63,953 bases of DNA, filler included, from Porpidia crustulata (GCA_964255105.1; 3 parts of 3 records of this genome joined end to end with filler, not necessarily neighbours in it); one strand, 5' to 3'. Shown: positions 21,853 through 52,824, counted from the first letter of the whole stretch. Notes: generated by a model not told the origin, from the letters alone. Made by a program: numbers and translations.

Positions 21853-21952
21853 NNNNNNNNNNNNNNNNNNNNNNNNNNNNNNNNNNNNNNNNNNNNTTAA
21901 TTAATTAANNNNNNNNNNNNNNNNNNNNNNNNNNNNNNNNNNNNNNNNNNNN
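21853..21952. other. Artificial contig linker / assembly gap
   Basis: N44-TTAATTAATTAA-N44, with stops in all six frames. Confidence 0.98.
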
Positions 21953-38348: not shown

Positions 38349-39625
38349 ATGATGAGCACAGGCGAAGCTGAGGAAACCCAGTCAGCCTCCGGTGATGGCG
38401 GGGCAGGAGGGCCAGGTGCGCCTACACCACTATCAGTCCTCGAGGTAATTGAAGCTTCTACGAAAGCACATGTATGGAGTGCGATAGATATCTAATCGAG
38501 GATCTAGGGAGTTGCTGGTCTTTCAGCACGAGACATAAAGTTAATCGTTGATGGCGGTTTCAATACGGTTGAGTCTGTCGCATACACGTAGGTGAACGCA
38601 CACCCAGGCTCAGCTACGTTGTACTAACGCTCAGAAAAGGCCCAGAAGGGTTTTGGAGCAAATCAAAGGCATATCGGAGCAAAAAGCGACAAAGGTACTA
38701 GCTGAAGGTAAGCATCTGTGGTAAGCCCTGGACGTAGTAGCTAATTTTCCTCAGCGTCGAAATTGGTACCTATGGGCTTCACTACGGCTACAGAGATGCA
38801 TCAGCGAAGAAGCGAACTCATCTCGATCACAACTGGCTCCAAACAACTGGACACTCTTCTGGCTGGCGGAATCGAGACAGGCTCGGTAACAGAGATATTT
38901 GGGGAGTTCAGGACTGGCAAGAGTCAAATATGCCATACACTTGCAGTGACTTGCCAATTACCGTTCGACATGGGCGGTGGTGAAGGAAAATGCCTGTATA
39001 TCGACACCGAAGGCACCTTTCGCCCGGTGCGCCTTCTCGCAGTCGCCAATCGCTATGGTTTGTCTGGAGAGGAGGTGCTCGACAACGTCGCTTACGCTCG
39101 AGCATACAACTCGGATCACCAGCTTCAGTTGCTGAATCAGGCATCAACGATGATGTGTGAAACTCGGTTTTCGCTGCTTATCGTAGACTCCGCAACGTCC
39201 CTCTATCGCACGGATTTCTCCGGTCGAGGCGAGTTGTCCTCCCGTCAAACGCATCTTGCGAAATTCATGCGAACATTGCAACGATTGGCAGATGAGTTTG
39301 GAATAGCGGTTGTCATTACGAATCAGGTGGTTGCACAGGTCGATGGGGGACCGAGTGCAATGTTCAATCCGGATCCAAAGAAACCCATCGGCGGCAATAT
39401 CATTGCCCATGCTAGTACCACCAGGTTGAGCCTCAAGAAGGGAAGAGGCGAGACGAGGATATGTAAGATCTACGATAGTCCATGTTTGCCCGAGAGCGAT
39501 TGTTTGTTCGCGATTAAAGTAAGTTCTAAGTCTATCCTTGCTGACCGGAACTATGACTTATGTGAGTGGTTTTGTAGGAGGACGGGATCGGAGATCCAAG
39601 CCCCAAGGATTTGGAGAAGGACTGA
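38349..39625 (+). CDS. RAD51: DNA recombinase Rad51 (uvsC/mei-3); introns 38445-38507, 38588-38639, 38708-38754, 39519-39577
   Basis: PMGFTTATE, Walker [35 protein letters not shown] and [12 protein letters not shown]; ends [15 protein letters not shown]. Confidence 0.98.
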
Positions 39626-43770: not shown

Positions 43771-43870
43771 NNNNNNNNNNNNNNNNNNNNNNNNNNNNNN
43801 NNNNNNNNNNNNNNTTAATTAATTAANNNNNNNNNNNNNNNNNNNNNNNNNNNNNNNNNNNNNNNNNNNN
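43771..43870. other. Artificial contig linker / assembly gap
   Basis: Same N44-TTAATTAATTAA-N44 pattern; followed by G/T-rich low-complexity sequence at 43871-43927. Confidence 0.98.
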
Positions 43871-46622: not shown

Positions 46623-48548
46623 GGTAGGCAAGTCCTTCAATTGAATGGCAGGACAAATTGGCTGGGTGGAATGTATGGCAGATTTGATTGAGTTTTCAAG
46701 TAAAGACAAGGCAAGCATGCGGTTTATATATTTTTGAGACGATGATGCGTCACAGGAAGTTGCTCCAACAATCTTGCCTCGAGGCTGAGCTGAATTATGT
46801 GCATTGTATGTGGTTGTTGAGCCTCTTGAAATATATGTCCAGCTTTGTCGTATAATGCAACGACATAGCCCATAAGAGGATGCTCTAGCTCGTTCATGTG
46901 ATCCATTTTACTCTGGCCAGTGCTTGATGCCTTGGTAGACTCTATGGCGGTGATAAGAATTGGGGGTGGGGTACTCCTTGGTGGACAGTGGGAGGATTCA
47001 TGCTGTGTAGCAACTCATTCTCCGATCCCACAGAAGACGTGATTCTCGTCTGTTTCTCCCGTAATCTCACGTGTCTCGAGGCCTATGAGCTGATGTCTGT
47101 ACGCTCTATGCACTTATTAGGCCTTCTAAAACGCATGTCTTACTCCCTTGTATGATGCGTCGCCATAGCCCCCAAGAATATCACTGCCAGAATAAGGAAT
47201 GAGCAGGAGCAACGGAGCAGAGAGTAAGTTCATGAGCTCAACTTGCTAGGCTTTATTCTGGCACTGCGTTTCATCATACAAAATCAGGGCAGAATTGTGA
47301 GATCATTTTGTCCAAAGCTGCTCTGGTTAAATGTTTTGTTATACGAAAATCAAGGCCCGGGATGGTGAGAGTTGGAGCCAGGCGTTGAAGTGTGAGATCA
47401 TGAGTTGAGTGAATCGTAAGACGATTTCCTAGCACAGGTTCTCGGGATATCAGCATCATTGTTAGAAATTGATGTCAGCAGGCGCAAGGCTGTGGCGGGT
47501 GATATCCTAAGCATGTTTTGCGAGAGAATGGCGGCCTGCGTTATGTCTAGCTTGTTGGCCTCGAGACGTACCGGTCAATCCTTTGATAGCGGTAATGACG
47601 TTATGAGGATCCAGGAGTGTCTTGAATAAGACTACAGGGAGGGTTTTACCTCAATATCTTTACACGGCTCTCATCCGAGGTAGGTCCGCCCAAGTTATTT
47701 TTTATTTGAATAGGAGTTGGGCGTAAGTTGGGGAAGCTATGGCTGCGTACGTCTCGGACACATCTCAGCGACAGAAGCCAACATGGTCCTATCAAAACAA
47801 CGTGGCCGAGGCTGCGTCGACGACAGGTAGAGCTGGAAGTTGGATGCAAATCCATATGGATTCGACACGTGAGGGGTTTGAGAGCCTGGCATTGACCTAC
47901 AAGAAAGCGTTTGCACTATGCACCCCGTTCGTCGAGCACCACAACAAGCTCCGTTCGCATTTCCGAGACTTTACATACTACAATAGGCTGGATGACCCTT
48001 CTTATAACATCAAAACTGCGTTCGATCTAATCACACGTATCGCCGTCGAACCTGTTGTGGCACGGTACGTCCGACATGCCGACTTTAAAGTTAGTGATTT
48101 TCAGATGTATCGTACCTCTCTTCCTGGCGTTTCTGGCTGCCGAAATAGGTCTCATATCGCGTTATTCAGCAGGGAATTCGTATAGTGGAGAGTCACAAAC
48201 GTTTGCAAAGATCGAGCTACAGTCCAATAAGAGCATTGCTAAATGTGAGAATTACTCTAGGTTGACAGGCTCGCTAATAATGAGACAATACGTTCGATGC
48301 TCGCAGACGTCGAATGTGGTGGAGCTGTAGTCAGACTGTTTGCCGATTCTCCCGATCTAGCGGAAGCAGGTCTCAATTGGGAGGAGTTCTATGCCAAGAT
48401 CGAAGAGGACCTAGAACCCATTCGCTATTCGCAATATGCTGCCGCCTTTCTTTTAACGCTCTTACCCAATGTCGAGACGCTCACGCTACCAAAGTGGTGG
48501 AAGCCAGTCGAGGCAACAGACAAGCTCGTTAATGTCGTCGTTCGTAAG

Positions 48549-48875
48549 GTACGTCTTTTCGCTCTTTCAGAGAGACTTGAGTGCGTTAGAGATCCTTTTC
48601 AAGACATTTGTTTGCCTTGCATCTACTTTCCAGACGTTCGAAAACACTAGGTGACTACTATTTTGGTGCTCTATCCCCCTATGAACAGTTCTACTACAGC
48701 CCTAAAATGACATGTAAGTGCGTCTATTTGTCTTATCGAAGGCGTGAGACCGCGTTTGTGGATTATGTACCCACCTCAGATCCACTATTCAAGCGTTCAG
48801 GAATGCCCAATTTTTGCTCTACTCCTTGCTAATACGTCGCTTCGTAGTCCGCTAACGCTCTAAGTCGACGTACAG
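48549..48875 (+). mobile_element. Introner-like intron B containing a nested 134-nt intron (48714-48847)
   Basis: Ends homologous to intron C; terminal inverted repeat GTACGTC/GACGTAC; internal GTAAGT...GCTAAT...TAG unit. Confidence 0.6.
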
Positions 48876-49030
48876 ACCAAGAAGTCACACCTCCTTTACA
48901 ATAGGCCTAGCCTTGCCCAGACCACCAAACTCGGTCCTTCTGTCTCATTAGCATCGGGGCATAGATTTGATTTGAACTGGGCGAGCCCTTTCCTGGCTCT
49001 ACCGCACATGCGGTCTTTCTGCGGACATAG

Positions 49031-49204
49031 TTTCGTCATTTCGCTCTATGAGCGCGAGTGCTCGTGAAGAGCACCTTACAGCGTTTCTGGCTCGTTTGCT
49101 CGCCTCAACCCTGCAATACCACTGCTCAAAAGACATAGTTCCGCTTTCAATCGGTTTAAATTTAATCGCAAAGACCTCCGCTAACGCTCCGAAATGGTAT
49201 GTAG
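49031..49204 (+). mobile_element. Introner-like intron C (degenerate donor)
   Basis: 15/19 identity to the 5' end of intron B; identical TCCGCTAACGCTC ending 15 nt before the intron end; terminal stem TCATTTCG/CGAAATGG. Confidence 0.6.
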
Positions 49205-51224
49205 CTGCGTAGCTTCAGATGCCAGTCTCAAGAGCATCCCACCTAAGGCCCTAGATCACGGCATCGGCGAGACTTTGGAAGTAGTTCATTTCGTGTGCTG
49301 TAGTATCGACGAGGTCGCTATTGCCGACTTCCTCAGACATGCCTTACGCCTCAGGACTTTCATGTACTCTCACTCGACAAAGGACCATGGCGGCCCTCGG
49401 GACTGGGATCTCTGCAAATTCGTGACTGCCGTTGAGCGCGAGGTAGGGAGTCATCTTGCAGAGCTCTCTATCACCATTCACGAACTACACGGCTCGATCA
49501 AGCCTGGCAAGACATCGATGCGAGGCTATCAACGTCTACGACAGCCCGAATTTCCTATCGAAATCGCGATTTGTAATATTACTGCGGCTGCATGTCATGC
49601 ATTGGAGAACAAGGAGCCATCCATCCTCGACCTCATACCCGCGTCAGTCTCTCGACTAGCAATAGATTCGCAAGGAACGGATCATCATGGACAAGCTCTC
49701 GATGTCATATTCCGTGGATTTGCCGCTGAGAAGGCTTCTCAGTTGCCCGCACTCAAGGACATTCATCTCGTCTCTCCTACAACAACGGACGAGGCGTATA
49801 TGCATCGGTGTACAAGACTACTCGCAGAGATGAAGCAAGTGGGTGTAAATTTGCATTTGGAGCCATGGTCAGCCGCTGCTTCTATGGCATGGGATGGGGA
49901 ATGGTAGCGTTTGCACGTATAGCGCCCTTCTACTATTTTCTCTATTTTTTATGACCAAACGGCATTTGGCACCAGCGCTGATCTGGGTGTCTGGGTGTCT
50001 GGGTAGGATCGGCGCTCAAAATAAAGGCCTCAGGTGTCCGGTTCGTGGGATATACCGGAAACAACGACATTGAAAACTGAGTTACGCCACGTCCAACCCG
50101 CTGATGCGGAAACAAAGGTCGAGGCGGAAGCGCGTCGTTGTCAGACAAAATTTCCACTCACGGTCCAACTTCCTCACAATCCCATCCGAACAATCTTGCC
50201 CTCCTGACCCCTTTCCAAATTTCCTTGTCCTGAACAGCGGCGACAAAGACCAAAACACCTCTTGTACAAGACAAGGACTGTGTTGGGACCACATCACGCC
50301 CCGAGATATCGGACTCGCAGCCCAAATCAACGAACATGATGAAAGGTCACCTACACTGCCGCAGCAGCAGCCTTGTTGCCCCCATCCAAGGCAATTCCAG
50401 GCAATTTTTGCCGGGGTGTCGGGTAAGCCTGTCACCCGCAGGGCTTTCTTTGCGGTGAATCCTCCATCTTTCTTATCGCTGTCGGATATCCAACAGGTTC
50501 CGCAGCTCGTTTCGTCGTTGGCGATGCGCTGTGAGCTGGTGGCATGTGTCCTACAACCTTTCAGTTCACTTTGCCGTCAAAAGCGGCCCATTTGCGCCTT
50601 CCCCCCCCCAGCAGGCCCCCAGCAGGCCGCTGCATGTCATATGGATGGTCATCGCATACGTGTAAGGATCTCAGACGAAGAAAATGGATGGGCAGAAAGG
50701 CATATGTTCGGCTCAGTAGGATCGAGACACATAGGAATAATCTACCAGTGTCAAGCTTCGGACTGGGCATAATGGGACCAATGAGAAAACTTCCCTTCAT
50801 TTGGATAGGTGCCTGTTGGATGCTCTGAACAGAAAATGATGAAAGAGCGGTGAGCGCTACAGAATTGTCTTTCAGAATGCCTCAGCCTCGCTTATAGATT
50901 CGTTATGGAACTCCCGTCATTAGATTAGTCTCCTTTCCACTCACGATAGGTGAAAGTCTGTGAGATTTTCATAATCACATCAAGACGTATTTTTCATAGC
51001 TGGAAGCTTTGCCATTGACGTTGCTAGCTAATTAGGCGTATGCTGTCGCCTGTAGTCCATTGTTTAAAATCGAAATTCTAATTTAGTTCCTGATACTGTC
51101 TTTCAGGATAGATACGCCCTGTGATCGAATATAGGGAATCGTTTGCATTTGCCGGAAAAAAAGGGGCTTTTAGAAATACATAACTTGAAATAATTAAACC
51201 GAGAAAATCATCCAGCTCTCGTCC

Positions 51225-52824
51225 TCATGCCGATGAACTCATCACTAAAGAGCCACTGTTTCCAAGGAAGACAACTAGAACAGCCGAATAGGCTGCTGTC
51301 GCGGCGAAGACTTCTTGTCTTTTCGCTTTGGTGAATATTGAGCACAAGGCTGAGAAGGCGAGGGTGAAGAAGAATATAACCATAATCTGGAAGTAGGTGT
51401 TGCGATCGACTTCGGCTCTGTTCCTGGGCTGGAGTCTGAACAGCACGAAGATGGGAGTTAGCAGAAGGACAGACGCACAGATGGTGAGGATACTGCGCAG
51501 CAAGATATCAAGCCGGGCGGCGGATACAAGGGTAATGGGCTCCGCGCCGGAAACGATCCTCTGCTCGGAGGTGCGGAAGACTATCTGTACACCGAGGTAG
51601 TATTTAGCCGAGATGAATGGATGTAGACTTGTGATGTAGGTATCTGAACAAAACGCGTGTAGAGTGGATGCGACTGAGATGGGTGCATCTGAAAGAGAAG
51701 CCATCCGATATATCATACTTCATGGAAGGTACTCCCAACAGGAGGCTGCCAGGTGTGATGCAATGAGATTTCAATTCAATGAAAGTATAATTCGGGGGAC
51801 AGGGCTGAGGCTGGAGAAATGAAGCTGAAAAGCTGCAATAAAGCCGAAGGGAAAGACGACATACGATCGTGATCTTCCTAGATATCTTTAGGAGAGTATT
51901 TTCAAGGAACGCAATAAGCCATCCATGTTCCTGGTCATGCGCCACCGCTGCCAGATCCGGGCTCAGCCGTATCCAGTCCGACTCCTCTGCAGCCTGACTT
52001 CCTGTATTTGCAATGAAGGCTGATACACTACTTTGGTTTCTTTTGGTCGGCCTTTTCATCGCCTGGATCTTTTGCATGCGAAAGAGTGACTCGTCTAAGA
52101 GGTCAGAATGCGCTCTATGTTCACGTCTAGTTAACTCACCGTATTCTATCAGCTTTGCTTGAATCTTTGCGAGTAGCTCACGTCGTTCTATTTCATCAGG
52201 ACCTTCATTTTGCCGACGTGAAAACAGCCGCCTTGGTTCTTTGACGAATTCGTACTTATTAAGTGCGATGAGGTCTTCTTCGAGCTCGACCAGCTCATCT
52301 TGTAGGTATAGAAGAGAGCAATTCCGAAGCCAAGTGAACTTTCGGTATATTAGGAGATCAGGATCACAACCTTCGAATGCGGCGAGTTTGCCATAGCCAA
52401 CAGGATGTTGATCCACTTCGCTGGCCTTAGTACGGTTATGATCCGCTGGTGACCAAACTTACAGGTAGGGATGAGTGGCTCCACTTCATAGTTGTAGGTA
52501 AAGCCCTCAGTAGAGTCTCCCCAAGTCTCTTTCCGAAGGCTCAAAGCCCTCTTTAGCCGCTTGGAAATCGGTTCTCGTTTTACACCTGAAGCGCCAAGGA
52601 TCTCTTAGATAGCGCGGCAAGTCATCGCTTCTAGTTTGAACCTTACTTTCACGTACACTGCTCTCTTCACTATCCAAGGATGCCAGACGACTAGACGCAT
52701 GCCGAACACTAGTAGGGTCTTCGAAAGAGGGCGATGGTGGATGGTTCGGGAGCTGAGGACCAACGCCGGAAGAAGGGTCAACAGCTTCCGTGCGCAACGC
52801 AAAGCTTGGAATCGTTTGAGTCAT
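51225..52824 (-). CDS. DUF6594-like membrane protein (about 5 exons; 280-nt intron 51585-51864)
   Basis: HPVGYGKLAAF, IYRKFTWLRNCSLLYLQDELVELE, KLIEY-DE, and C-terminal TM helices ending AKRQEVFAATAAYSAVLVVFLG. Confidence 0.8.

Follow-up and report, generated by a model that had tools for sequence, protein, structure and literature searches.

A gene with three unusually long introns

A gene in the stretch of DNA analysed here (the window, 63,953 nt from Porpidia crustulata) raises the question of how several long introns came to lie together in a single gene. Regular fungal introns are given as 50-55 bp in PMC4457414, and the four neighbouring introns in the window, which are recognized only by joining reading frames, measure 48-52 nt. 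The three introns studied here (A, B and C) exceed these neighbours, with 171, 327 and 174 nt. An earlier note on this DNA had drawn attention to both points: the unusual lengths were confirmed by the coordinates and by the alignment of homologues, and the short neighbours stand, but only as far as joined reading frames define them. The gene, for which tblastn of homologues is part of the evidence, is organized as follows:

47739-49907, plus strand: complete gene, four exons
47739-48089, plus strand: exon 1
47739-47870, plus strand: 44-codon non-homologous extension of the ORF from an alternative ATG, upstream of the deletion breakpoint 47870/47871
47871-48089, plus strand: conserved part of exon 1 (tblastn of homologues; 83-94% nucleotide identity to orthologues)
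48090-48260, plus strand: intron A, 171 nt, GTTAGT..TAG
48261-48548, plus strand: exon 2, 96 codons
48549-48875, plus strand: intron B, 327 nt, GTACGT..CAG, two units in tandem
48876-49030, plus strand: exon 3, 51 codons and 2 bases
49031-49204, plus strand: intron C, 174 nt, starting with TTTCGT, acceptor TAG (model R1, 126.4 bits)
49205-49907, plus strand: exon 4, 233 codons and stop

When the three introns are cut out, the gene yields a 498-aa protein that aligns to 30 full-length homologues and shows no indel of its own at any of the junctions. Each of the introns contains in-frame stops and the lengths of the corresponding inserts in orthologues are not multiples of 3, which together rule out that the three stretches are coding insertions. 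In the orthologues, all 24 introns (8 distinct sequences with three introns each) run from GT to AG and the branch motif GCTAAC is conserved. In the window, intron B is flanked by AG..AG and intron C by TAG..TAG, and intron A is preceded by AAA, not by AG. The boundaries that had been proposed for intron C do preserve the reading frame, but the donor that they define is TTTCGT instead of a GT. The Rfam search of positions 47600-50000 returned no match at E ≤ 1, that is, no known intron-hosted RNA. We infer that the three stretches are real spliceosomal introns, with splicing predicted at the boundaries listed above.

Regarding the encoded protein, a query with exon 4 against 1.84 billion representative proteins retrieved 292 relatives at E ≤ 0.001, 59 of them at E ≤ 1e-30, with lengths mostly of about 480-500 aa. 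Two of these relatives have public names, both as hypothetical proteins, from Stromatinia cepivora and from a Brigantiaea leucoxantha MAG. The Pfam search of the exons found no family, and the protein atlas gave only hypothetical proteins for the gene family, apart from an LRR family assigned to 24% of one cluster. The consensus of the gene family carries an F-box-like LPxELL motif at its start.

Elsewhere in the window, what looks like an ordinary intron some 50 nt long (38588-38638) contains a branch region, CTAACGCTCAGAAA at 38624, that resembles the 3′ motif of intron C; this likeness is at chance level (E 7.9). Third matches to two end motifs, at 51316 and 61139, were discarded as unrelated sequence. 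The window also includes four runs of 44 N, arranged as two close pairs (21853-21896 and 21909-21952; 43771-43814 and 43827-43870).

Relatives of the gene with and without the introns

A metagenome locus scan with an 11-row protein alignment yielded 35 loci. Twelve of them (L001-L011 and L032, comprising 8 distinct sequences) carried inserts at all three positions, the lengths at A, B and C being 168-175, 297-326 and 156-172 nt, respectively; the 297-nt insert at B belongs to L008, in which 25 nt of exon 2 are missing. Among the other loci, 17 had no intron at junction A, 18 had none at junction B and 22 had none at junction C (projected gaps of -15 to +15 nt), and locus L035 covers none of the three junctions. 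The empty sites of the intron-less relatives read AAG at A, AAG at B and CAG at C immediately before the insertion point, and the insertions are seamless. A segmental duplication of exon plus intron was rejected as the source of the inserts, since the intron-free homologues are collinear with the gene, with 0 to ±15 nt per junction. Removal of the introns produced intact ORFs of 478-487 aa in 6 of the 8 distinct orthologues, and only when all three were removed. Contigs of individual sequencing runs gave the following picture: in run X4, a 4369-nt contig joins exon 3 straight to exon 4, with 364 letters versus the 871 of the window; in run X2, one contig joins exon 2 straight to exon 3; and in run X3, contigs match portions of introns B and C with 86-89% identity.

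A midpoint-rooted tree of the exon-4 proteins groups the 12 intron-bearing loci with the window in a single clade (100/100), which lies among intron-free clades, and the intron distribution is explained by one change. All three introns appear to have been acquired on a single branch of a gene family that otherwise lacks introns, because their carriers constitute a single clade and the junctions are intron-free in the other family members. Since that gain, the introns have probably been inherited vertically. The lineage-specific gain proposed in the earlier note thus agrees with the alignment of orthologues (12 loci with the introns; 17, 18 and 22 intron-free at A, B and C).

The metagenomes also contain several members of the family side by side. 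A contig from the air metagenome X2 includes 210 nt of exon 4 (window 49623-49832) with 1 difference, and the same run also holds more distant relatives, both intron-bearing and intron-free. Single metagenome assemblies (L001/L010; L009/L015/L020; L011/L021/L030; L032/L028) include both intron-bearing and intron-free members, and one metagenome assembly contains two different intron-bearing members. Either the family is multi-copy or these samples are mixed.

The copy of the gene in the window shows signs of decay

Intron C starts with TTTCGT in the window versus GTACGT in the orthologues (GTACGC in L007), all 8 of which start with GTACG. The donor of intron C has most probably mutated from GT to TT in the window's copy, and the frame-preserving boundaries of this intron are non-canonical in this genome. 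Two cryptic splices were considered and rejected: the first, from the GT at 49030 to the AG at 49204, would put the sequence out of frame and run straight into a stop; the second, from the GT at 49030 to the AG at 49212, is in frame but replaces the SCVA motif kept by many homologues. The branch motif of intron A is also altered in the window, with GCTAAA versus GCTAAC in the orthologues.

At the beginning of the gene, window 47000-47870 aligns to L001:645-1549 and position 47871 onward aligns to L001:2179 onward; because of this jump, about 629 nt (L001 1550-2178) are missing at 47870/47871. The deletion removed the native ATG and the 20-residue F-box-like N-terminus, whose place is taken by the unrelated 44-codon extension from 47739. 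In six translated orthologues (L001, L004, L007, L008, L009 and L010) the protein starts with MAL(T/I)RL(P/A)TELLD.. directly before EGFESLAL, and this start is absent in the window. Disruptions are also present in two orthologues, namely L007 (2058-2798), whose spliced ORF is cut short by a stop at residue 348, and L008 (2594-2875), where a 25-nt deletion at the end of exon 2 causes a frame shift. As far as can be judged from sequence, the window's copy of the gene is decaying and the gene would evidently be dispensable, with the possibility that the apparent damage in the window reflects an assembly error.

Upstream of the gene, window 47150-47512 matches L009:7024-7675, a region downstream of the gene in that locus, at five places in series with 77-91% identity, a pattern that points to a short repeat, either dispersed or in tandem.

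Intron B is a tandem dimer of units homologous to intron C

A second copy of the 5′ motif was found inside intron B and, because of this internal recurrence, B is divided into two units, B1 and B2. The elements of the three introns are located as follows:

48093-48103 with 48246-48256, plus strand: terminal stem of intron A
48127-48138, plus strand: core motif of intron A
48238-48243, plus strand: branch-like GCTAAA of intron A (GCTAAC in orthologues)
48549-48717, plus strand: unit B1, supplying the donor GTACGT, 3′ end ..TAA (model R1, 142.6 bits)
48718-48875, plus strand: unit B2, with the internal relic donor GTGCGT and the acceptor CAG (model R1, 127.9 bits)
48752-48763, plus strand: core motif of B2
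48851-48856, plus strand: branch GCTAAC of B2
48867-48873 with 48549-48555, plus strand: end pairing of intron B through the 7-nt GACGTAC (48867-48873)
49036-49043 with 49190-49197, plus strand: stem of intron C
49081-49092, plus strand: core motif of intron C
49180-49185, plus strand: branch GCTAAC of intron C

Across the window and the orthologues, the units measure 158-169 nt (B1), 156-158 nt (B2), 156-174 nt (C) and 168-175 nt (A). The likeness between the 5′ ends of B and C that had first been seen in the window, 15 of 19 positions, was verified there and increases to about 20 of 21 positions in the orthologues (95% over 21 nt). Two shared motifs that had also been pointed out are indeed present, each as the only exact copies in the window: TCCGCTAACGCTC at 48848-48860 and 49177-49189, in both cases ending 15 nt before the intron end, and GCGTTTCTGGCT at 48127-48138 and 49081-49092. 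Global alignments of the unit consensuses, compared with 2000 shuffles, gave these values:

B1-B2: z 8.6, 0 of 2000 shuffles as good
B2-C: z 7.75, 0 of 2000 shuffles as good
B1-C: z 5.9, 0 of 2000 shuffles as good
A-C: z 2.95, 13 of 2000 shuffles as good
A-B1: z 0.39, 805 of 2000 shuffles as good
A-B2: z 0.93, 450 of 2000 shuffles as good

BLASTN of B against C reached a best E of 2.3e-7, the HMM of B2 matched C at E 7.4e-4 within the window, and an 18-row alignment of the units was collinear from the donor through the acceptor. Local alignments restricted to the window were equalled by dinucleotide shuffles in 6 of 1000 cases for B-C, 62 of 1000 for A-C and 395 of 1000 for A-B. B1, B2 and C are clearly homologous units of about 160 nt, and the homology of B and C is stronger than first seen, B being a dimer of C-like units.

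The position of intron A is less firm. Its GCGTTTCTGG core sits at an offset close to that in B2 and its 3′ layout is alike, and it was missed by the HMM searches and by the covariance model. The kinship of A and C had been proposed on the basis of a shared 12-mer; the motif exists, but the likeness of the two introns is near chance in the window alone (62/1000 shuffles) and only suggestive for the consensus of A (13/2000). Intron A is probably a more diverged unit of the same element, a reading that these comparisons make suggestive only.

The inner signals of B were compared in six rows: B1 ends in ..TAA in 5, the CTAAC of B1 is kept in 3 and the GTACGT of B2 is kept in 4. With a 3′ end that reads ..TAA, B1 therefore no longer ends in an acceptor. 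The inner acceptor and donor of B are decaying, and the outer donor and acceptor are kept. Two-step splicing at the junction between B1 and B2 would shift the frame; because of this, intron B is not a donor-disrupted stwintron and that reading was dismissed.

In the multiple alignment, the units are on average 49-56% identical to one another, versus 72-96% for orthologous copies. The introns are older than the clade that carries them, whose members differ by at most 28% in intron sequence, and the units are several times more diverged. The gain is lineage-specific without being recent; a recent gain is not supported, as the units differ at about half of the aligned positions.

An opposite reading would make the three introns ancestral, lost in all other lineages, with a likeness due to shared splicing signals only. 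The shared motifs do include the donor and branch consensus (GTACGT, CTAAC), but the homology is collinear over about 160 nt and extends beyond these signals (z 5.9-8.6; E 2.3e-7), and the nesting of the intron-bearing clade among several intron-free clades would require the repeated loss of all three introns. This reading, already disfavoured, has in our opinion almost no chance of being correct.

Terminal inverted repeats are a common feature of the units

In every unit, and also at the internal ends of B, the 5′ end (alignment columns 2-13) can pair with the 3′ end of the same unit (columns 167-178). Of the 216 cells of this 12-pair terminal helix, 81% are paired in register, versus 23-46% when the two sides are slid by 1-3 columns. 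Covariation in this helix is limited, with three pairs that change on both sides, including a flip from A-U to U-A between B2 and C. When random window segments of equal length were examined, stems as good as the terminal ones occurred in 4 of 5000 for A, 74 of 5000 for B (Watson-Crick pairs only) and 64 of 5000 for C, and all three terminal stems appeared in the MFE folds. The near-terminal complementarity reported in the earlier note (11 bp in A, GTACGTC/GACGTAC in B and a stem in C) is accordingly beyond chance and present in all units, of which it is a family feature. The stable structure that had been expected of these introns was not found: their total folding energy is no better than that of dinucleotide shuffles (z +0.35 for A, -0.42 for B and +0.66 for C), and RNAalifold gave 0 consensus pairs on the units, with no shared structure beyond the terminal helix.

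Search for copies of the element in other genes

When 27 intron sequences were compared by BLASTN with 287,794 bases (window and 35 loci), matches fell only at the three intron positions. Model R1 recovered only the known units from 198,669 bases (window and 21 loci) and, with filters off, from the whole 64-kb window, where the next best match had an E of 0.34. When a 2251-nt stretch was compared with the source run X1 (430,130 contigs, 110.9 Mb), only 1 contig matched the gene at a likeness of at least 80%, and in run X3 the intron parts are found at single cover. The units that could be detected are all confined to 1.1 kb of a single gene, and the mobile multi-copy family at unrelated loci anticipated at the outset did not materialize in the 64-kb window, in the 198,669 bases or, at a likeness of at least 80%, in the source run. 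The sensitivity of model R1 to old copies is limited, because it does not find intron A, and the 80% threshold would miss copies elsewhere that are as old as the units, whose identity to one another is just 49-56%. Among the papers brought up by a full-text literature search on introners in lichens, none seems to concern this element.

The introner-like elements (ILEs) of Dothideomycetes reportedly go back to the work of van der Burgt et al. in 2012. The units described here might be decayed members of such a family, once present genome-wide in many unrelated genes, with this gene as a hotspot. Their length, about three times that of regular fungal introns (50-55 bp, PMC4457414; 48-52 nt in the neighbours), is in line with this idea, as are their own canonical signals and their location at positions that are intron-free in relatives; moreover, ILEs degenerate fast and genes with multiple ILEs are known (PMC3609843, PMC4457414), and the searched sequence is small (198,669 bases). 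Clustering in one gene does not exclude this origin either, because genes with two ILEs located 145-626 bp apart are documented (PMC4457414). However, neither BLASTN nor model R1 revealed a second locus in the sequence searched, the source run contains one contig at a likeness of at least 80%, the intron parts in X3 are at single cover, the folding energy is not below that of the shuffles and a consensus structure is absent. Considering both sides, we regard a formerly genome-wide ILE family as a less likely source of the units, but as the main alternative to the explanation that we prefer.

Alternatively, the introns could stem from three or four insertions of a MITE-like DNA transposon, acting as a TE-derived introner, with duplication of a 2-3-nt AG/TAG target that would provide the acceptor. 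Every unit has terminal inverted repeats of about 12 nt, even at the non-functional internal ends of B, and the AG..AG around B and the TAG..TAG around C fit a short target-site duplication; in addition, TIR DNA transposons represent the commonest class of introners, with about 82% of the classified cases (PMC12130899). These flanking repeats of 2-3 nt are nevertheless uninformative, because they are identical to the ordinary protosplice and acceptor consensus, and intron A follows AAA, not AG. Model R1 did not detect copies outside introns or on the other strand in the 198,669 bases and the window, and an autonomous partner is not known. We therefore consider the transposon origin improbable.

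Comparison with known intron-duplication systems

Like the ILEs of Dothideomycetes (PMC3609843, PMC4457414), the units are long, possess their own donor, branch and acceptor, are related to one another and are prone to decay; they occupy positions that are intron-free in relatives, and several can be present in one gene. The correspondence comprises length, canonical signals (the TT of intron C in the window excepted) and gain positions. In contrast to the ILEs as depicted in these two papers, copies in unrelated genes were not found in our searches, the units are not near-identical and their fold is no more stable than that of shuffles. Neither the short terminal inverted repeats nor the tandem dimer seen here seems to figure among the features described for ILEs in PMC3609843 and PMC4457414.

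Same-gene duplicated (SGD) introns (Collemare et al. 2013, PMC3609843) are also related introns within one gene whose flanking exons are not duplicated, and half of the SGDs are attributed in that paper to within-transcript transposition or to transfer between paralogues. SGDs, however, are defined there as near-identical and have ordinary length and free energy, whereas the units studied here are 49-56% identical, are about three times the ordinary length and include one tandem dimer. The sister (stw)introns of Hypoxylaceae (Fekete et al. 2021, PMC8469720) share with our case proliferation, terminal symmetry, seamless insertion, the lack of an Rfam family and the lack of a clear flanking duplication; they differ, according to the same source, in having repeats of 45-55 nt (about 12 nt here), scores of copies in many genes and a stwintron architecture. 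As to the TE-derived introners (Gozashti et al. 2025, PMC12130899), they resemble the units as short non-coding elements with terminal inverted repeats that act as introns, but the AG/TAG flanking repeats observed here are indistinguishable from the protosplice consensus and further copies were not found. The case is filed with the known intron-duplication phenomena, as a variant.

Proposed origin of the introns

The explanation that we prefer, and that we judge to be probably right, is that one intron element of about 160-170 nt was copied into three sites following an AG in an intronless F-box-like gene, by local propagation within the same gene. Such local propagation is favoured over an active genome-wide family. 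Copying would have taken place on the stem branch of a single small clade of fungi. The element would have carried its own signals, that is, a donor GTACGT and a branch GCTAAC about 20 nt before a YAG acceptor, together with a terminal inverted repeat of about 12 nt able to pair both intron ends. As a putative mechanism, an excised intron would reverse-splice into another protosplice site of the same transcript, and reverse transcription and recombination would then return the new arrangement to the gene. A tandem duplication inside B would complete the scheme: intron B, made of two tandem units, would be spliced as one intron, and intron C is a single unit. The end-pairing repeat persists where it is useless for splicing, which suggests that it has a role in the copying mechanism.

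A broader version of events is also conceivable, and we hold it only tentatively. The unit of about 165 nt could be the relic of an undescribed fungal introner family, whose members would have short terminal inverted repeats, would insert seamlessly at sites following an AG and would be able to insert in tandem. Such a family would have produced the three introns of this intronless gene in a single burst and would have, or have had, copies in further genes of these fungi.

Clean and datable cases of intron gain are rare, and here three introns appear to have arisen on one branch of an intronless family. At least two of them reveal their source directly, being copies of one element (in one case as a tandem dimer), and the empty sites have been kept in relatives. 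If further copies exist in the whole genome, the element would represent a new introner family; if there are none, it would be an unusually clear instance of intron propagation within one gene.
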